Shown here piece after piece: positions 42,968-59,090 of a stretch of DNA of 64,000 nt. Under the pieces are notes generated by a model. The model ran no database searches. It worked only from the letters and a program-made list of their open reading frames with translations, and was not told where the DNA came from. The position numbers and the translations under genes are program-made. The DNA comes from Candidatus Hodarchaeota archaeon (GTDB lineage: Archaea > Asgardarchaeota > Lokiarchaeia > Sigyniarchaeales > SOKP01). Each line of letters begins with the position of its first letter. The first letter of the stretch is position 1. The stretch spans positions 1 through 64,000 of the forward strand of contig JBHLJY010000004.1 of NCBI GenBank assembly GCA_048887225.1, read 5' to 3'.

Positions 42968-43067
42968 AAATGAAAATTATTTATCTTAAAAAGATAATTT
43001 TTTTTCTTTATAAATAACAAAATTAATATTCTTATTAGATTTAAATTGTAATTTTTTCAAAATCAGT

Positions 43068-44447
43068 TTGAAAATGGCTGACGATAAATTTTTAAATAAT
43101 AGACGTGATAAAGCAGGATTTTTTAGATGCCCATCGAGCGACCACATATGTTTAGGGGAAGGAATTCACTTGTATAATGAGAGCGAAAATCGTTATTTAA
43201 TATCTCCTGTAAAGATCCATGTACAGAAAGATTCTCCAAGAGAAAAATTAATAAATAATATAAGAAATGTTTTTGAAAGGGAATTCCCAGATAGTCAACT
43301 TTCTGATTTTGATATATCAAGGATCATTTATAATGACCCTAAATTCATTAAAGATAATTTTCTTCACTCAAGAAAAATAAAGAGAAATTCAAAACCAGAT
43401 TTACTTGTACTTATGAAAATTATTTATTATATTCAAAGTTTAAGTATCAATGACATTGCAAAATTTAAAAAAATGAAAGATAATACCACTAAAATATTAG
43501 ATAACATTAAAATAGATATCAGAAAAATAATTCTTGATTTTATCTTTGATAATCCTTATAGTACGAAGTATATTAAACAAGATAATCGAACTAAACACCA
43601 AAGAGAAAATAATTATTGGAGACCTGAATTTGAACTCTTTTTAGATTTATGGTATGCTGCTTCGTTAAATAACAAAGAACCAATAACGATTAAAATCTTC
43701 CAACAAACGATTGGTAATCCTGCTTTTTCAACACCTACTAAAATTGGGAAATGTAATCCGAAATATTTTTACAATTTGCTTAAAAAAATGCCCTCCTTAT
43801 TTCCTCAAATATCACTAAAGGATTTTAAGCAGGTTCATCGAAGTGTTAAAAATTATATAAGAATTCGAAATTTAAGGGAAACTTATAGAAATTATTCAAT
43901 CTATTGGGAGGATGAACTAACAAAGAAAGGCCAAATTACTATTCTTCTTTTAAGAGATTTAGGTGTGGAAGTATTAACTCTTAAAAAGATTCCATCAATA
44001 AGTTTTAATAAAAATTTAGATTTACATGATCCAATAAAATATCAACGACATCATATATTTCCTAACGATAAAGATTCAATTAATCCGAACAGATTAGTGC
44101 TTGCAGTTTTAACTTCCCACACTAGTTTAGAAGGATTAACAAATTTAATAATTTCTCTTATAAAGGATAGAATAAAATCATGCGATAATATTCCACAATA
44201 TTATAAAAACAATATTAAAAATGCTCAACAATTATGGAATGAATTTCTAAAAAGACGAGATATTATAAAAAATATGGGTATAGAATACTTTTTCAGGACC
44301 TATTATCCTGATGTAGTGAATAGGTTTTATAAAAATGTTCCAAGAGGTCATCTTAAACTAGCAATTAAACAAGTGATTAAAAATTGGCTTAAAGATGGAA
44401 ATCCAGAACCCGTACTTCCAAAATATTTATGGCTTCAACTTATTTGA
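43068..44447 (+). CDS. Basic hypothetical protein with HNH-like motif
   Basis: YQRHHIFPNDKDSINPNRLVLAVLTSH resembles an HNH ββα-Me motif. Confidence 0.55.
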   Translation: MKMADDKFLNNRRDKAGFFRCPSSDHICLGEGIHLYNESENRYLISPVKIHVQKDSPREKLINNIRNVFEREFPDSQLSDFDISRIIYNDPKFIKDNFLHSRKIKRNSKPDLLVLMKIIYYIQSLSINDIAKFKKMKDNTTKILDNIKIDIRKIILDFIFDNPYSTKYIKQDNRTKHQRENNYWRPEFELFLDLWYAASLNNKEPITIKIFQQTIGNPAFSTPTKIGKCNPKYFYNLLKKMPSLFPQISLKDFKQVHRSVKNYIRIRNLRETYRNYSIYWEDELTKKGQITILLLRDLGVEVLTLKKIPSISFNKNLDLHDPIKYQRHHIFPNDKDSINPNRLVLAVLTSHTSLEGLTNLIISLIKDRIKSCDNIPQYYKNNIKNAQQLWNEFLKRRDIIKNMGIEYFFRTYYPDVVNRFYKNVPRGHLKLAIKQVIKNWLKDGNPEPVLPKYLWLQLI

Positions 44448-44553
44448 AGAAATATAAAAAATGAGGATAAAAAAGAGAGGATTTCTAAATAGGTTTCAAA
44501 TATTGAAAAAACCAAAAATTTCTTTTAAATTTATTAATTTTATTAATTTAAAT

Positions 44554-46935: not shown

Positions 46936-47119
46936 TGCTCCCGGGGGGATTTGAACCCCCGATTTCTTGGTTTTTTACAAATCGTAAAAATCTCTCAGGT
47001 TTTTACTAAACACAGACAGAAATTTTAAAATTGTATGTCTATGTGTCAATTATAAGACCTGCGCTTGTTGATCAAGCTCATAAAACCTGTGCTTGTTAAC
47101 CAGGCTAAGCAACGGGAGC
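46936..47119 (-). tRNA. tRNA-Ile(UAU) with three BHB introns (47096-47067 at 21/22; 47049-47001 at 38/39; 46993-46964 at 45/46)
   Basis: Acceptor GCTCCCG/CGGGAGC, D stem GCTT/AAGC, spliced anticodon arm CAGGT-CTTATAA-ACCTG, T arm GGGGG-TTCAAAT-CCCCC; 75-nt mature cloverleaf. Confidence 0.85.
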
Positions 47120-51501: not shown

Positions 51502-52569
51502 TTGAGCGATAAGAAATTTTTGGAAATTAATGGCTCATTTGGAGAAGGGGGAGGTGCCATCCTTCGTTTAACCGCAGCTTTTTCCATATTATTTAATCGC
51601 CCTATTAAAATTAAAAGTATACGTGCTAATCGCCCTAAGCCAGGATTAAGAACTCAACATTTACTAGGGCTTAAGGCACTTGTTGAGTTAACTGATAGTT
51701 CTTTAAGCGATTGTAAAGTTGGATCTAGAGAATTAACTTTAATACCAAAAAGAAGGATTAAAAGTAATATTCACGTAAATATTGATACTGCAGCATCTAT
51801 AGGCTTATTACTTCAACCTATTCAAATTGCATCTTTAGGATTTAAGAGATCGGAGAAAATCGAAATTCTTCTTAGTGGCGGAGGAACCTTTGGTAAATGG
51901 GCTCCAAGTCTTAATTATTTACAACGAGTTACTTATCCGATTTTCAGTAAATCTGGTTTAAGAATTGATATTGAAATAAAAAAACACGGATGGTATCCAA
52001 AGGGGGGAGCACACTCAATATGTTCCATATTCCCTCCAAAAAATAAGTTAAAACCGATAAATTTAACAGAATTAGGAAATATTGATTTAATTGAAGGTGA
52101 AATTATTATAACCAATCAATTGAGGAGACAAAGAGACAACATAGCTGAAAGAATTCGAAAATCTATTAAACAACAAATTAAAAGAAAATTAAAGATAGAA
52201 ACAGATGTAAAGTATACTTGGGTGGATTCGAAAAGTCCTGGCGTGGGCCTCTCTTTATGGGCTCACTCTGATACAAATGCAATAATATCCACTGGTACGA
52301 TTTTAGGAGAAAAAAGTATATCTTCTGAAAAACTTGGATTTATTGCAGCAAATCAGCTGATGAAGTATATAAAAAAGGAAATTCCCGTTGATAATTATTT
52401 AAGCGATCAATTAATACCGTTAATGGCATACGCTAAGGAACCTTCAAAAATAAGAGTTCTTGAAATTACAAATCATACAAAAACCAATTTAAAGTTAATT
52501 AAAAACTTTATAAACAGAGATTACAAAATTACCAAAAACCAACATAATTTTTTAATAGAATATCAATAA
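51502..52569 (+). CDS. rtcA: RNA 3'-terminal phosphate cyclase
   Basis: GEGGG..LR, IRANRPKPGL..QH, G.YPKGG, DQL, T.HT.TN. Confidence 0.92.
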   Translation: MSDKKFLEINGSFGEGGGAILRLTAAFSILFNRPIKIKSIRANRPKPGLRTQHLLGLKALVELTDSSLSDCKVGSRELTLIPKRRIKSNIHVNIDTAASIGLLLQPIQIASLGFKRSEKIEILLSGGGTFGKWAPSLNYLQRVTYPIFSKSGLRIDIEIKKHGWYPKGGAHSICSIFPPKNKLKPINLTELGNIDLIEGEIIITNQLRRQRDNIAERIRKSIKQQIKRKLKIETDVKYTWVDSKSPGVGLSLWAHSDTNAIISTGTILGEKSISSEKLGFIAANQLMKYIKKEIPVDNYLSDQLIPLMAYAKEPSKIRVLEITNHTKTNLKLIKNFINRDYKITKNQHNFLIEYQ

Positions 52570-52635
52570 ATTCGGGCATTAATCACTTCTTTTTTCATAA
52601 TATAATCTACAATCATAAAAATTCATAAGAAATTT

Positions 52636-52657
52636 TTATAAGATCTTGTTATTATAT
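52636..52657 (+). repeat. Outer direct repeat, left copy (20/22 identical to 57409-57430)
   Basis: TTATAAgaTCTTGTTATTATAT. Confidence 0.6.
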
Positions 52658-52736
52658 TTTGTTTTAAAACAAGTGTTAACCTAAATAAATAACTCTTAGT
52701 TAAAATTTTATTTTTTTGTTATTTATCCTGGATTAA

Positions 52737-52764
52737 ATCATATATCTGTTCTAAGATATAAGAT
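52737..52764. repeat. 28-bp 11-6-11 inverted-repeat site, left copy (tyrosine-recombinase-like)
   Basis: ATCATATATCT-GTTCTA-AGATATAAGAT; arms 10/11 complementary; repeated at 57332. Confidence 0.7.
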
Positions 52765-52812
52765 AGAAATAAAAAAAAAAGAAAAAGGATTTAATTAAAT
52801 TTACACACTTGA

Positions 52813-55800
52813 TTATTCTTTTTTTGGAAGATTAATTATGCCTTTCTTGATTAATACAACAACAGCTACACCACCACCTAGGCTAGCAAGAATAACTACA
52901 ACTATAATTACCATTACTATGCCTATATCCTCCTCGTCGTCGTCATCATCGTCATCTCCGGCAGCAGGACTAGGACCAGGACTAGGACCAGGAGATACAT
53001 CTTGACCATCATCATAAATAGGTTTAGTATCTTCACTTCCTCCACCACCAGGAATAGGATGTAGAGTATTCCCTATGCCATCACCATCTGGATCGCTGCC
53101 CGTATAATTGTCCCAATAATTACCAATGATACCATTGTCCCATCTATTATCGGTACCATCGTCAATGGCATGGACTGTATTATTTCTAAAATAATTCAAA
53201 TAAAAAGTGTTATAATTGCTACCTCCATTGAGAAAAATTCCTCTTCCTTCATTGAAACAAATCTCATTTCCTGTAATATTATTGTTAGTGGATACATCAA
53301 AATTTATCCCGTAGCGTGTGTTATTGTTGATTATGTTTTCAGTAATGTTGTTCCATTCGGCTGAACTTAAATATATACCATCATAACCAGTACCAGAATC
53401 TCCATTATTAGTTATGTTGTTTTCTGAAATGCAATTATCATCGCTGTTTAATATACATATTCCATGCTCCTCATTATATTTTATTTCATTTTTAGAAACT
53501 GTGTTATTATGACTATCATCTTGTAAATATATCCCGTACTGTGTGTTTTTGTTTGCAGTGTTTCCCGAGATAGTGTTGTCAGTGCAATTATTATATAAAT
53601 ATATCCCTGCATTTTGGTTTGATGTCATGTTGTTGCATGCGGTATTGCCTGAGATGGTGTTATCGTCGCAATATGAATATAAATAAATTCCGTATAGGGT
53701 GTTGTCGTTTGCGGTGTTTCCCGAGATGGTGTTATCGTCGCACTCACCTTCTAAATATATCCCGTACTCTTTGTTGTTGTTTGCGGTGTTTCCCGAGATA
53801 GTGTTATCAGTGCAATTATTATATAAATATATTCCGTACTGTGTGTTGTTGGTTGCGGTGTTTCCCGAGATTGTGTTATTGTCACAATAATCTTCTAAAT
53901 ATATCCCGACAAATTGGTTTGATGTCATGTTGTTGCATATGGTGTTTCCCGAGATCATGTTGTTATCGCATTCATCCCATAAATATATCCCATAATCTTC
54001 GTTGTCGTTTGCGGTGTTTCCCAAGATGGTGTTATCGTCGCACTCACCTTCTAAATATATCCCGACATTTTGGTTTGATGTCATGTTGTTGCATACGGTA
54101 TTTCCCAAGACAGTGTTGTCGTCGCAATCATCCCATAAATATATCCCATAATCTTCGTTGTCGTTTGCGATGTTTCCCGAGATTGTGTTATCGTCGCACT
54201 CACCTTCTAAATATATCCCGTACTGTGTGTTGTTGTTTGCGGTGTTTCCCGAGATTGTGTTATCGTCGCACTCACCTTCTAAATATATCCCGTACTGTGT
54301 GTTGTTGTTTGCGGTGTTTCCAGAAATTGTATTATTCTTGCAACGGTATCCTAAATATATCCCTCTTAATTGGTTTGATGTCATGTTGTTGCATACGGTG
54401 TTTCCCGAGATTGTGTTGTCATCGCTATATTCATATAAATATATCCCGTACTGTGTGTTGTCGTTTGCGGTGTTTCCAGAAATTGTATTATTATTGCAAC
54501 GGTATCCTAAATATATCCCTCTTAATTGGTTTGATGTCATGTTGTTGCATGCGATGTTTCCCGAGATTGTGTTGTCATCGCAATCATGCCATAAATATAT
54601 CCCATAATCTTCGTTGTCGTTTGCGATGTTTCCCGAGATTGTGTTATCGTCGCACTCACCTTCTAAATATATCCCGTACTGTGTGTTGTTGTTTGCGGTG
54701 TTTCCCGAGATGGTGTTGTCGTCGCACTCATTTTCTAAATGTATCCCTCTTAATTGATTTGATGTCATGTTGTTGCATGCGATATTGCCTGAAATGGTGT
54801 TATCGTCGCAATATGAATATAAATATATCCCGCTTTCACTATTATCGTTTGCGGTGTTTCCCGAGATGGTGTTATTATCACTATACCATAAATATATCCC
54901 GCTTTCACTATTATCGTTTGCGGTGTTTCCCGAGATGGTGTTATTATTACTATTATATAAATATATCCCGCTTTCACTATTATCGTTTGCGGTGTTTCCC
55001 GTTATGGTATTATTGTCACATTCATCCCATAAATATATACCGAAATCGTTGACGTTTGCGGTGTTTCCCGATATAGTATTATTGCTGGAATAATGCATAT
55101 AAATGCCATAATTCTTATTATATGACATGTTACACATTGAGATAGTATTATTATTGCTGTATAATAATGAAATTCCAATTGATCCATGAGAAACATTTAA
55201 GTTTGAAATTATAGAATATCTACAGTTGGCAAGGAATACTTCTCCAGCATTCGTGAAGTCTGCTAGTTCCAATCCGATCTTATTGACATAGTAATAAATT
55301 GGTTTTCCATTTATAGTATTTGTAGTATCAATATGGTGTGATGAACATTGTTCAAGATTACCAATAATGAATAAACCTGACTCAATCATAATATTTCCCG
55401 AGACAGTGTTATTATTACTCTCCTCTAGATATATTCCATACCTAGTGTTGTCGTTTGCGGTGTTTCCCGAAATTGTATTATTATCACAATTATATAAATA
55501 TATCCCGCTATCCCTGCTGAAATTTGCGGTGTTTCCCGTTATGGTATTATTTTCGCAATAATATAAAGATATCCCTCTATATTGGTTTGATGTCATGTTG
55601 TTGCATGCGATGTTTCCCGAGATTGTGTTGCTATTGCAATCAAAATATAAAAGTATCCCATTATCGTCGTTGTCGTTTGCGGTGTTTCCCGAAATTGTAT
55701 TGTTATCACAATTATATAAATATATCCCGCTATCCCCGTTGAAATTTGCGGTGTTTCCCGAGATTGTGTTGTTATCGCAATTTATTCTTAGATATATCCC

Positions 55801-56862
55801 GCACCAGTTGTTATTGTTTGCGGTGTTTCCCGTTATGGTATTATTGTCGCATTCATCTTCTAAAAATATCCCATAAATCCCGTTTTTGTTTGCTGTGTTC
55901 CCCGAGATTGTGTTGTTATTGCAATTTATTCTTAAATATATCCCTCTATCTTGGTTTGATAATGAATTTTTATTGCATGCGGTGTTTCCCGAGATTGTGT
56001 TGTTATCGCAATTATCATATAAATATATCCCGTCCCCTCTGTTATCGTTTGCGATGTTTCCCGAGATTGTGTTGTTATCGCAATTTATTCTTAAATATAT
56101 CCCATAAAAATCGTTGAAATTTACGGTGTTTCCCGAGATTGTGTTGTTGGTGCATTCATCCCATAAATAAATCCCGCTACCCCCGTTTAAATTTGCGGTG
56201 TTTCCCGAGATTGTGTTGTTATCACAATTATCCAATAAAAATATCCCTCTATCTTGATTTGATGTCATGGTGTTACTTGCTTTATTTCCCGAGATTGTGT
56301 TGTCGTCGCAATCACCTACTAAATATATCCCGTACTCGGTGTTATCGTTTGCGGTGTTTCCCGATATCGTGTTATTATCACAATCATATAAAAATATCCC
56401 GTTTTTATCGTTGTTTGAACAATTGTTAATCAATAAGGCTCCGTTATTTGTGTTTTCCAATTTGATTCCCGCATTCCCCCAATTTGCTCCCGAATTGTAA
56501 ATAGTACAATTTTCAATCCTAAAATAATCGTTTTTGGAATTATTTATAAAAATACCGCTTCCCGTAGGGGAACTGCTTGCGTCGATAGTAACGTTTTCAA
56601 TAACATAGGGCTTGCTCCACGATCCATCGCCACTAAACCAACCCTTACCAGTCGCATCCGACCAATTGCCGTCAATATATATGAAAGATTCAGTATAGGC
56701 TCCCGATTTTTTCGGATTTTTTAAATTAGTTACGTCTAGAATTTCCCCGCTTCCTTCATTATTTAATTGCTGATCGCTGAAATTTACGTTTCTAATGATT
56801 ATTATAGCGAAAACCATTCCTATCGCTATTAAGATTAATATTTTTGATTTATTCGATTTCAT
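52813..56862 (-). CDS. Large surface protein with right-handed parallel beta-helix (NosD/CASH) repeats and C-terminal TM anchor
   Basis: Signal/TM N-terminus, >35 GIYL...CDNNTISGN repeats, GNYWDNY.G.D..GDGIG, acidic linker, TM helix, basic tail. Confidence 0.92.
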   Translation of the reverse strand: MKSNKSKILILIAIGMVFAIIIIRNVNFSDQQLNNEGSGEILDVTNLKNPKKSGAYTESFIYIDGNWSDATGKGWFSGDGSWSKPYVIENVTIDASSSPTGSGIFINNSKNDYFRIENCTIYNSGANWGNAGIKLENTNNGALLINNCSNNDKNGIFLYDCDNNTISGNTANDNTEYGIYLVGDCDDNTISGNKASNTMTSNQDRGIFLLDNCDNNTISGNTANLNGGSGIYLWDECTNNTISGNTVNFNDFYGIYLRINCDNNTISGNIANDNRGDGIYLYDNCDNNTISGNTACNKNSLSNQDRGIYLRINCNNNTISGNTANKNGIYGIFLEDECDNNTITGNTANNNNWCGIYLRINCDNNTISGNTANFNGDSGIYLYNCDNNTISGNTANDNDDNGILLYFDCNSNTISGNIACNNMTSNQYRGISLYYCENNTITGNTANFSRDSGIYLYNCDNNTISGNTANDNTRYGIYLEESNNNTVSGNIMIESGLFIIGNLEQCSSHHIDTTNTINGKPIYYYVNKIGLELADFTNAGEVFLANCRYSIISNLNVSHGSIGISLLYSNNNTISMCNMSYNKNYGIYMHYSSNNTISGNTANVNDFGIYLWDECDNNTITGNTANDNSESGIYLYNSNNNTISGNTANDNSESGIYLWYSDNNTISGNTANDNSESGIYLYSYCDDNTISGNIACNNMTSNQLRGIHLENECDDNTISGNTANNNTQYGIYLEGECDDNTISGNIANDNEDYGIYLWHDCDDNTISGNIACNNMTSNQLRGIYLGYRCNNNTISGNTANDNTQYGIYLYEYSDDNTISGNTVCNNMTSNQLRGIYLGYRCKNNTISGNTANNNTQYGIYLEGECDDNTISGNTANNNTQYGIYLEGECDDNTISGNIANDNEDYGIYLWDDCDDNTVLGNTVCNNMTSNQNVGIYLEGECDDNTILGNTANDNEDYGIYLWDECDNNMISGNTICNNMTSNQFVGIYLEDYCDNNTISGNTATNNTQYGIYLYNNCTDNTISGNTANNNKEYGIYLEGECDDNTISGNTANDNTLYGIYLYSYCDDNTISGNTACNNMTSNQNAGIYLYNNCTDNTISGNTANKNTQYGIYLQDDSHNNTVSKNEIKYNEEHGICILNSDDNCISENNITNNGDSGTGYDGIYLSSAEWNNITENIINNNTRYGINFDVSTNNNITGNEICFNEGRGIFLNGGSNYNTFYLNYFRNNTVHAIDDGTDNRWDNGIIGNYWDNYTGSDPDGDGIGNTLHPIPGGGGSEDTKPIYDDGQDVSPGPSPGPSPAAGDDDDDDDEEDIGIVMVIIVVVILASLGGGVAVVVLIKKGIINLPKKE

Positions 56863-57331
56863 TTTTTTTAAATTTTTTTTTAAGATTTTAGATGATCAAA
56901 TGTTTGTATTTCAAATTTAATGATCATCAATAGTTCAACAATCTTAAATTTTATATTTAAAAGGATCTGGTAAATTTTTGAAGCATTAAATTTTCCAAAT
57001 TTAATTTTAATTAAATAAATTAAAGATATTAACCCATTTTAAAGACTAGAGCAAAGATTTAAGCACGAAACGGTAAATTCTAATAAATTCCAATAGAATT
57101 ATTTGATACAAAATGATACAAAAAATATTTTTGTGGTATCATAATAATAACAAATCAATCGCTTTTTGTTTTTGTGGGCACATATAAATTAAAAATTGAA
57201 TATAGTACATTAACATTTTATATAAGGATTATATAATAAATGTCAATATTAAGGCTAAAACATTGATTTTGAACAAAAACATCTTATCGTTTTTTTTAAA
57301 AGACCTTAATAATCAAATTGAAAATCAAGAA

Positions 57332-57359
57332 ATCACATATTTGTTCTAAGATATAAGAT
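57332..57359. repeat. 28-bp 11-6-11 site, right copy (same orientation as 52737-52764)
   Basis: ATCACATATTT-GTTCTA-AGATATAAGAT; 26/28 identical, same spacer. Confidence 0.7.
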
Positions 57360-57408
57360 TCACTAAGCTTAACCTTTCAAAATAGCAAAAAAAAATTATC
57401 AGTAATGA

Positions 57409-57430
57409 TTATAAAGTCTTGTTATTATAT
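57409..57430 (+). repeat. Outer direct repeat, right copy; overlaps likely TATA box of downstream gene
   Basis: TTATAAagTCTTGTTATTATAT, ending about 35 bp upstream of ATG 57466. Confidence 0.6.
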
Positions 57431-57465: not shown

Positions 57466-58374
57466 ATGTCAATCGCACTCCAAAGATGTCCCAGATGCGG
57501 AAACGAAAATCCCGCAGATAGTTTTGTTTGCTCCTTCTGCGGTAAAAGATTAAAAATGGAATCTATTGAAAATTTTTTTCTTTTTCGTCGAATTGAAGAG
57601 GAATGGGTAACACCACTTCCATGGTATATGAAAATTTATTATCTTTTTAGAGATCCCTCTCGTGCGTTCCACGATATCAATCACAAGAGAAGTGCAGCTC
57701 CTGGTTATATTATTCTATTATTAAATTCATTATTATGGGGTTTTATGGGTTTAGCTTTTATCTCACATTTTAGATTTAGCCCCATTTCGACGGCATTTAT
57801 TTATGCAATATCGTTTTTTATAATTTTTTTTATATTTGGACTACTTTTCAATTTTATATTTTATACAATTCTTACTTGGTTGTTTAGTAAAGGTGCTAAT
57901 TACGCCGTTGGATTTTCAGAAAGATTAGATATTCGTTTTGGAGGTGAAAAAGAAAAAATAGAGCTTCATAAAAAATCAGAGATGAGCCCTTTTTCTATTT
58001 ATAAAGGAGGCACGCTATTACAAAAACAAGCGGCTTATAAATATAAAATGCTTTTTTGCGCTTTTACTCCTTTTTTATTGGTTAATGCTATTAAAGTTAT
58101 AATCATTCTTATTGCATTCCCTACTATTAGGGTTGATACTGAAAGCGAACTGCCCCTAGATATTTTTAACAGAATATTTAGATCTCCAGTTTGGACTGTA
58201 CTCGATGTTATTGACGCTTTAACTATGGCAATTTGGGTACCTATTTTAATGGCTTTAGCCATAAGAGACTTATCCAATTCATCTACACTCCGCGTTTTAA
58301 TTTCATCACTGATAATAGGTGCATCTGTTGCAGTGCTGTTCTACTTTCTTAGACCTACTCTTTTTGGAAGTTAA
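57466..58374 (+). CDS. Zinc-ribbon plus Yip1-like multi-TM protein
   Basis: CPRCG.......CSFCG; LFRDPSRAF followed by TM helices. Confidence 0.65.
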   Translation: MSIALQRCPRCGNENPADSFVCSFCGKRLKMESIENFFLFRRIEEEWVTPLPWYMKIYYLFRDPSRAFHDINHKRSAAPGYIILLLNSLLWGFMGLAFISHFRFSPISTAFIYAISFFIIFFIFGLLFNFIFYTILTWLFSKGANYAVGFSERLDIRFGGEKEKIELHKKSEMSPFSIYKGGTLLQKQAAYKYKMLFCAFTPFLLVNAIKVIIILIAFPTIRVDTESELPLDIFNRIFRSPVWTVLDVIDALTMAIWVPILMALAIRDLSNSSTLRVLISSLIIGASVAVLFYFLRPTLFGS

Positions 58375-58442: not shown

Positions 58443-59090
58443 ATGAAAGAAGATAAAGCAAATTTCGCTAAAATCGAATCTGAATTATTCGCACTAATTA
58501 ACTCTATAATAAATCTTTATATTAAATATCAAAAAGGCTCAATTAACGAAAACTTCTTTCAAAAAGCCGTTAAAGACGCAATGAATGGTTTATTGAGTAT
58601 AAATCTTTATTTAAAAAAAAGAAATATTTCACTTACCAAATTTTTAAATGGTATGAATCTTCTCGACGATTATGATAAAGTTATGAAAATTGTTAATAAT
58701 ATTTCTGATTTAGATTCTTACGATGAATTTAATACAGTTCGAAATGGAAATAAATTTTATTCTGAGAAAAGACTAAGGAGTTCTATATTAGAACTGCCTG
58801 GAATTGCTTCAGAGATAACCTCTTCATTTATCACGCTTATCGATGCGTTAAAATTAGAAGGGCAAAGCCAATATCTTATGATTAGACTGCTGAATGAGTT
58901 AAAGGCTAATTTTAAAAAATTTAAATTTCCAGGATTAAAAGATATTCGACTTAAAATAAAAAAAATTTATAGAGACGCTTTAAAGAATACTGCTAATCTC
59001 GTCAGTGATAATCAATTTAGAGAAGAAATAGCAGATCGGTTGTATTCAGTTTTGAAAGAATTTCAGCAAAAAATCAGTGTAAAAACTTAA
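58443..59090 (+). CDS. Vps28-like (ESCRT-I) protein
   Basis: ESELFALINSI...Y.KG.I N-domain and ASEITSSFITLIDALKL (cf. Vps28 AE.T..FIT.MDALKL). Confidence 0.65.
   Translation: MKEDKANFAKIESELFALINSIINLYIKYQKGSINENFFQKAVKDAMNGLLSINLYLKKRNISLTKFLNGMNLLDDYDKVMKIVNNISDLDSYDEFNTVRNGNKFYSEKRLRSSILELPGIASEITSSFITLIDALKLEGQSQYLMIRLLNELKANFKKFKFPGLKDIRLKIKKIYRDALKNTANLVSDNQFREEIADRLYSVLKEFQQKISVKT

Follow-up and report, generated by a model that had tools for sequence, protein, structure and literature searches.

Architecture of the locus

We analysed a 64,000-nucleotide stretch of DNA (hereafter the window; positions 1 to 64,000 of contig JBHLJY010000004.1, denoted C4) from the assembly of a Candidatus Hodarchaeota archaeon (GCA_048887225.1, denoted G000; 3.27 Mb, 30% GC), in which a gene for a large beta-helix surface protein is enclosed by two direct copies of a 28-bp site made up of two 11-bp arms and a 6-bp spacer (11-6-11). 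Three congeners are referred to as G002, G006 and G009. The features from the conserved left neighbour to the conserved right neighbour are listed here, with the flank types L1, R1 and R2 described further below.

51502-52569, plus strand: rtcA, encoding RNA 3'-phosphate cyclase (Pfam RTC, E 3e-60), conserved left neighbour
52617-52657, plus strand: left copy of a 41-bp direct repeat, the ancestral promoter of the Zn-ribbon gene, with TATA-like TTTTTATAAGAT
52658-52736, plus strand: short module forming the left end of the insert; it contains the palindrome TTGTTTTAAAACAA, a T-run and CCTGGATTAA and is homologous to C6:97349-97408
52737-52764, plus strand: left 28-bp 11-6-11 site, GTTCTA class, at a convergent (terminator to terminator) junction
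52765-52812, minus strand: R2-type terminator-side flank of the beta-helix gene, with a T-run on the gene strand
52813-56862, minus strand: NosD/Beta_helix surface-protein gene, 1349 aa, the cargo of the cassette; stop codon at 52813-52815
56863-57331, minus strand: upstream region of the beta-helix gene, with a family-specific leader at ~56940-57129 and an L1-like end, GAAAATCAAGAA, adjoining the right site
57332-57359, plus strand: right 28-bp 11-6-11 site, GTTCTA class, at a divergent (promoter to promoter) junction
57360-57430, plus strand: right end of the insert, an R1-type flank (TCACTAAG...) followed by the right repeat copy at 57390-57430
57466-58374, plus strand: gene for a Zn-ribbon membrane protein, conserved right neighbour

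The left site reads ATCATATATCT-GTTCTA-AGATATAAGAT and the right site ATCACATATTT-GTTCTA-AGATATAAGAT. Both lie on the plus strand, agree at 26 of 28 positions and start 4595 bp from each other, and 100 dinucleotide-preserving shuffles yielded no chance match to either. The arms are complementary at 10 of 11 positions in the left copy and at 8 of 11 in the right one. The left site lies 48 bp past the stop codon of the beta-helix gene and the right site lies 469 bp beyond its ATG. A first-pass annotation made from the sequence had given coordinates, orientation, spacer, spacing, distances and arm pairing for this pair, every number of which proved correct, and had stated that no recombinase is encoded in the window; this holds for the whole contig, on which neither tyrosine (PF00589) nor serine (PF00239) recombinases were matched.

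The 1349-aa protein carries Pfam NosD and Beta_helix repeats (E 6e-163 and 2e-148) between a signal-like N-terminal helix and a C-terminal membrane helix. Its best relatives in a homologue search of 5.8 billion proteins share only 39-47% amino acid identity, so that no donor or second context for the beta-helix cassette was found in this search (<=47% identity), and exact-protein look-ups for the beta-helix and Zn-ribbon proteins returned no further record. The leader of ~190 bp upstream of the gene (56940-57129, minus strand) is repeated upstream of many beta-helix or adhesin-like genes, at no fewer than 15 loci (>=15) of G000, including C10:9440-9619, C28:22344-22489 and C1:441-619, and about half of its copies have a 28-bp site within 250 bp. 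The check proposed earlier, whether the 28-mer flanks other surface-protein genes, has a mixed answer: roughly half of those related to the beta-helix gene lack a site close by.

A family of 28-bp sites expanded in one species

The 28-mer is a multi-copy element in its genome: a consensus scan of G000 returned 54 sites, 53 of them credible, against a single match for the reversed-consensus control. The conserved block spans 28-30 bp. Its right arm, AGATATAAGAT, is nearly invariant (mean 0.57 mismatches), the left arm, ATYATMTATYT, is looser (mean 1.64), and the inner arm positions, those nearest the spacer, are the best conserved. Variable spacers had been named beforehand as a mark of a transcription-factor site; the spacer length is constant at 6 bp, yet its sequence falls into two discrete classes rather than one, GTTCTA-like in 16 sites and AGTTCA-like in 37. 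Among 40 relatives, only 0-2 GTTCTA-type copies were found per genome, or 0-7 by a looser pattern that itself gives 0-4 control matches, which, set against ~53 copies in G000, indicates that the family expanded in the G000 species. Scanning public genome contigs with a 16-base gapped core pattern produced mostly chance matches in unrelated bacteria.

Pairing between the two arms of a site reaches 69%, a value equal to that of arms shuffled among copies, so that covariation is absent, and the predicted hairpins of the two window sites (-3.2 and -0.2 kcal/mol) are no better than those of shuffles. The lack of covariation together with the negligible hairpin indicates that the site is read by a protein as duplex DNA, rather than as a folded strand or RNA, and an Rfam search at the sites found no RNA family. 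The 28-mers thus appear to be duplex binding sites with 11-6-11 geometry for a putative protein. An element acting as a folded strand, either an integron attC-like site or a hairpin of the repetitive extragenic palindrome (REP) type moved by a Y1 transposase, might have been suggested by the occurrence of an imperfect palindrome in intergenic DNA beside single genes. The pairing and folding results make it highly improbable, and so do the enzymes and the length: G000 has no match to the Y1 transposase (PF01797) and no TnpB domain above cut-off, the best candidate for an integron integrase, at 106.6 bits, falls far short of the TIGR02249 cut-off of 265 and is in fact XerA, and the site measures only 28 bp. 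An attC is a folded site of at least 55 bp with a GTTRRRY core. Bacterial interspersed mosaic elements (BIMEs) consist of an intergenic palindromic unit and a small set of re-assorting flanking motifs, and REPs bear a conserved GTAG-type tag. The G000 sites likewise combine an intergenic palindromic unit with flank motifs that re-assort, but they have no stable hairpin, GTAG-type tag or REP-associated tyrosine (RAYT/Y1) transposase, and they lie between whole transcription units that differ between species.

Sites lie between self-contained transcription units

Although 84% of the genome lies under open reading frames (ORFs), 52 of the 54 sites are intergenic; 30 mark tandem, 9 convergent and 8 divergent junctions, at regular distances from the genes. 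The gene model, restricted to ATG starts, missed the TTG-start rtcA, so the left window site was scored as tandem. Gene starts are found 23-508 bp from the sites. Judging from their surroundings, the sites occupy untranscribed gaps between complete transcription units, each with promoter, gene and terminator. The DNA on either side belongs to a small number of types. L1 is a 135-bp left module comprising a TATA-like promoter and the leader of a leftward gene, which in most copies starts 111-161 bp from the site, whereas in L2, L3 and L4 a rightward gene ends in a T-run terminator. On the other side, R1 (TCTCTAAG...) forms the promoter-side flank of a gene reading rightward, and R2 (AGAAATGAAAAAAA), read on the opposite strand, provides a leftward gene with its T-run terminator; the R2 flank AGAAAT(G/A)AAAAAAA follows 20 sites, with the stop codon 35-65 bp away in those checked. 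The beta-helix gene conforms to this pattern, with an R2 terminator at the left site and the L1-like GAAAATCAAGAA at the right site. Within the L1 leader there is a perfect short palindrome, CCATAAATTTATGG (for example, in G000 C2:91300-91411), which, like the palindrome TTGTTTTAAAACAA at the left end of the insert, may be an operator or a 5' RNA hairpin.

The resemblance of the right arm to a promoter raises the question of whether it is a TATA-like box that starts rightward transcription, either into the next gene or antisense into a convergent one. In favour are the presence of ATATAAGA in the arm, the rightward genes that follow R1 flanks, and a similarity to the conserved promoter (TTTATAAGAT versus GATATAAGAT). 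Genes to the right of R1, however, have TATA-like boxes of their own 45-60 bp further on, the gene starts are scattered over the range given above, and a promoter accounts neither for a palindromic partner arm nor for a spacing fixed at 6 bp; we consider this function quite unlikely.

The flanks re-assort across the site. All four combinations of L1 or L2 with R1 or R2 occur (7, 7, 4 and 2 sites), and the spacer class tracks the left flank (19:1 for L1, 0:7 for L3 and L4 together) and not the right one. This one-sided linkage locates the effective point of exchange at the invariant right arm or inside it. Sharp boundaries are seen in comparisons between paralogous cassettes, in which 11 of the 15 long right-side homologies and 64 of the 89 long left-side homologies end at the far edge of the site. 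The commonest cassette encodes not an adhesin but a 130-aa membrane protein, and its paralogous cassettes are 67-92% identical, with homology halting at the site edge. The densest array, G000 C2:90785-112442, holds 18 sites in 22 kb, many of which bound 550-640-bp cassettes of this protein family (MALDVEKELK...). The beta-helix gene is one cassette, but the earlier proposal of a system that moves adhesin genes does not describe the commonest cargo.

A polarised insertion into a conserved neighbourhood

The rtcA region is collinear with G002 (95% identity) and other congeners. The Zn-ribbon protein has only sub-threshold Pfam Zn-ribbon, DZR and Yip1 matches (E ~1e-4, below the gathering cut-offs), and the first 300 nt of its gene are 68-100% identical to those of congeners, where it is adjacent to rtcA. 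In eight congeners and one metagenome contig the gap between the two genes measures 93-129 bp and contains no 28-mer, as opposed to 4896 bp in G000. The metagenome contig came from a scan with RtcA, which added this one empty allele and no strain variant. Empty alleles, looked for as evidence of excision, thus do exist, but they hold no 28-mer.

In the alignment with G002, the closest genome (~95% identical), homology extends to position 52657 and resumes within 57390-57430, which defines a G000-specific insert of 4773 bp (52658-57430) that contains both sites and overhangs them by 79 bp on the left and 71 bp on the right. Flanking the insert is a 41-bp direct repeat with 80% identity between the copies, the last 14 bp of which, TCTTGTTATTATAT, are identical in both. 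This repeat is the Zn-ribbon promoter, and the junction lies approximately at the expected transcription start. The left copy, with one mismatch to the single G002 copy, is the ancestral one, and the right copy arrived with the insert. The module at 52658-52736 is absent from all empty alleles, and its palindrome TTGTTTTAAAACAA (52660-52673) stands just after the duplicated promoter. Misassembly of the insert is unlikely, because the junction repeat has only 14 exact bp.

Joined right to left, the ends of the insert give a single high-scoring segment pair of 170 bp (74%, E 3e-18) with an uninterrupted module at C6:97249-97408, in which the normal arrangement is site, R1, promoter, short palindrome-bearing segment and T-run. 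The match of the joined ends to this intact module identifies the insert as a circular permutation of the normal arrangement, which in turn points most simply to a circular or cassette-array-derived intermediate that would have crossed over within the promoter homology. An alternative is a two-step history, in which a site-bearing unit came first and a cassette subsequently entered at its site. The congener comparison shows the beta-helix gene and both sites to be a lineage-specific insertion, in support of the first-pass view. The accompanying claim that the pair excises or inserts the DNA between its sites is, as far as these data go, not supported at this locus: the junctions lie outside the sites and within the duplicated promoter, and the block appears to have entered via that promoter and not through the two 28-mers.

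Three further features of the window were recorded. A second G000-specific segment of 1.5 kb (43002-44542) contains a 459-aa ORF without a Pfam match; G002 has only ~38 bp at this position, and neither a 28-mer nor a flanking repeat was seen. An Rfam tRNA match on the minus strand (46936-47119; 35.9 bits over 184 nt), for which ARAGORN made no call, is probably a tRNA gene with a long intron. Directly 3' of the Zn-ribbon gene, on the plus strand, lies a Vps28-like gene (58443-59090; Pfam VPS28, E 3e-6) of the endosomal sorting complex ESCRT-I, which fits an Asgard genome.

Sites and variable DNA at other loci

In G006 and G009, single sites occur together with gene-sized insertions or deletions relative to G000, ~80-170 bp inside the boundary of the variable segment. 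On G006:C49, homology to G000 resumes exactly at the site edge, beside a duplicated gene 3' end. At this locus (L028, 1740-4330), a 2.2-kb insertion carrying two genes has on either side a diverged copy of the 3'-terminal 190 bp of the upstream gene, of which the right-hand one abuts the 28-bp site exactly. An island edge marked by conserved genes (G000 C4:78462) has the site in G000, G006 and G009, with different cargo beyond it. Cassette content at loci on C7 and C2 differs from that in G002, and the breaks fall either 85 bp away from a site, as on C7, or at an island end that has none. Taken together, these comparisons show that the sites are tied to variable DNA, yet the junctions with conserved DNA are often off-site.

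Off-site junctions are what one would expect if the 28-mer were the site of a dimeric DNA-binding protein (an insulator, silencer or activator) carried in portable modules, with cassettes shuffled by short-homology recombination among repeated intergenic modules of which the 28-mer is just the best conserved. The one polarised event, between rtcA and the Zn-ribbon gene, used promoter homology and not the site; the difference between G000 and G002 on C7 breaks at the end of an R1 module; an orthologous position in G006 keeps the right half and TCTCTAA while the left arm decays; and the right arm and the TATA region of the conserved promoter are similar in sequence. We nevertheless regard this explanation as rather unlikely. 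Nine sites stand between two terminators, a position with nothing to regulate; neither the two discrete spacer classes, each constant in length, nor a 28-bp block so much more uniform than ordinary operators would be expected; an expansion to 53 copies in a single species, starting from only a few, is not how regulons behave; and homology breaks sharply at site edges. An operator regulon as such was rejected on the nine terminator-to-terminator sites and on the copy number, 53 in G000 against 0-7 in relatives.

Candidate enzymes

Only three PF00589 matches are present in G000. The first, a 309-aa ORF on C25, is an orthologue of XerA (238.8 bits on NF040815 recomb_XerA_Arch, cut-off 220) and is the sole full Xer-type enzyme found in this genome. 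The second is a 340-aa integrase on C24, and the third an integrase unique to G000 within the genus (L011, G000:C7:125421-126020). The C7 integrase was set aside as the enzyme of the sites, with no link to them, since its neighbour is uvrC and the end of the contig truncates it. Just before its start is a dif-like stretch, AATAGATATAT-CTCTA-TTATATCTAAG, the right arm of which matches the Pyrococcus abyssi dif arm at 10 of 11 positions. No serine recombinase scored above cut-off in G000, and a single-copy dif like that of P. abyssi was not found there. The recombinase acting in trans that had been postulated for the pair thus has a candidate in the XerA orthologue encoded elsewhere in the genome, and action of a tyrosine recombinase in trans is the leading, if hypothetical, mechanism.

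Comparison with known systems

Among described systems, the nearest is that of the pdif modules of Acinetobacter plasmids and chromosomes, which are moved by XerC/XerD (PMC6449649). Both have 28-bp sites with 11-bp arms and a 6-bp centre, of which one arm and the inner positions are better conserved, and in both many copies per replicon bracket one- or two-gene accessory modules without a recombinase of their own (PMC6449649). Extra chromosomal pdif sites are also known, 14-15 in some Acinetobacter (PMC6449649). In G000, however, the host is archaeal, the sites are chromosomal and recombination is a prediction; no identical module was seen in two contexts, the spacers form two discrete classes, and each unit has a stereotyped promoter and terminator. 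Whereas pdif sites alternate as C/D and D/C, local copies in G000 are mostly direct, as is the window pair: the sites of the C2, C7, C10 and C28 arrays nearly all point the same way, and inverted pairs (C2 103009/103629 and C6 96627/99970) are a minority. The label of a dif-module-like system is accordingly earned by the 11-6-11 geometry, the constant 6-bp spacer and the position at unit borders, but not by inversely oriented site pairs.

Archaeal XerA acts on a single 28-bp dif (P. abyssi, PMC2958812; reviewed in PMC8371274) and works in vitro without a partner (PMC2958812). The shared 11-6-11 geometry and the XerA orthologue liken the G000 sites to archaeal Xer/dif, but archaeal dif is single-copy and located at the replication terminus, unlike the 53 copies in accessory islands. 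With integrons, including archaeal integrons and CALINs (clusters of attC sites lacking an integrase; Ghaly et al. 2022, PMC9668308), the G000 arrays share single-gene cassettes, a recurrent recombination-type site and content that varies between strains and species. They differ in that there is no IntI, the sites are 28-bp duplexes and not folded attC, and the units, found in both orientations, have their own promoters (L1) and terminators (R2) instead of being promoterless and co-oriented from Pc. The alternative label of an integron-cassette-like system is thus to be dropped, as each defining feature (IntI, attC and promoterless co-oriented cassettes) is missing. As in a classical integrative element with attL and attR, there is a direct repeat at the insert ends (14 bp exact within 41 bp at 80%), but no integrase is encoded within the 4.77-kb insert. 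Aloposons, giant-protein elements that integrate at tRNA genes, are unrelated.

Proposed history and its weighing

We favour, as an evenly balanced call, the view that the sites are where a tyrosine recombinase acting in trans would exchange DNA. If it does so at the conserved right arm or next to it, left and right flanks would be re-assorted and cassette mosaics would arise, the beta-helix gene being one such cassette among the self-contained units in accessory parts of G000. The 4773-bp block consists of the cassette, both sites and a split promoter/terminator unit without a gene; a circular or tandem-array-derived intermediate would have integrated by one crossover in the 14-41 bp of promoter homology instead of at the 28-mers. 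The two direct GTTCTA sites could still excise a circle of 4595 bp. The identity of the enzyme, with XerA as a candidate, and the positions at which it would cut are part of the proposal.

Several observations weigh against this view. At the only locus with a known ancestral state, the junctions are off-site and the empty allele is devoid of a site, and searches turned up neither an allele with a solo site nor a circle junction, nor an identical cassette in a different context. At the island edge in G006 the site is reduced to its right half, an observation that a promoter-type element could equally account for. None of the arrays has a recombinase linked to it; the C7 integrase, next to uvrC, is 5.5 kb from one of them. 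The 28-mer shares 11 of 22 arm positions with the P. abyssi dif (PMC2958812) and differs beside the spacer. Finally, short-homology recombination within the invariant arm would give the same mosaics. Reading the units as cassettes is supported in both their architecture and their evolution. The fuller proposal, that Asgard chromosomes carry a cassette system in which XerA-type 11-6-11 sites border complete transcription units, surface-protein genes among them, and a host tyrosine recombinase exchanges, excises and re-inserts these units, is more tentative, and we put it somewhat below an even chance.

Implications

The locus between rtcA and the Zn-ribbon gene is a cleanly polarised insertion into a conserved core neighbourhood, and it indicates that repeated promoter and terminator modules are themselves substrates of recombination, for which models of such systems, and the annotation of the DNA between paired sites as a 'cassette', must allow. 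If the system operates as proposed, pdif modules would have an equivalent in archaea, one with direct sites, spacers in two compatibility classes and exchange beside a conserved arm, and Xer-type module mobility would extend from Acinetobacter plasmids to archaeal chromosomes. Should the 28-mers be true recombination sites, they would define a cassette-shuffling system without a description in the literature searched, in the archaeal lineage closest to eukaryotes. Such shuffling would act on cell-surface and membrane proteins, and hence on the way in which these archaea meet partners and viruses.

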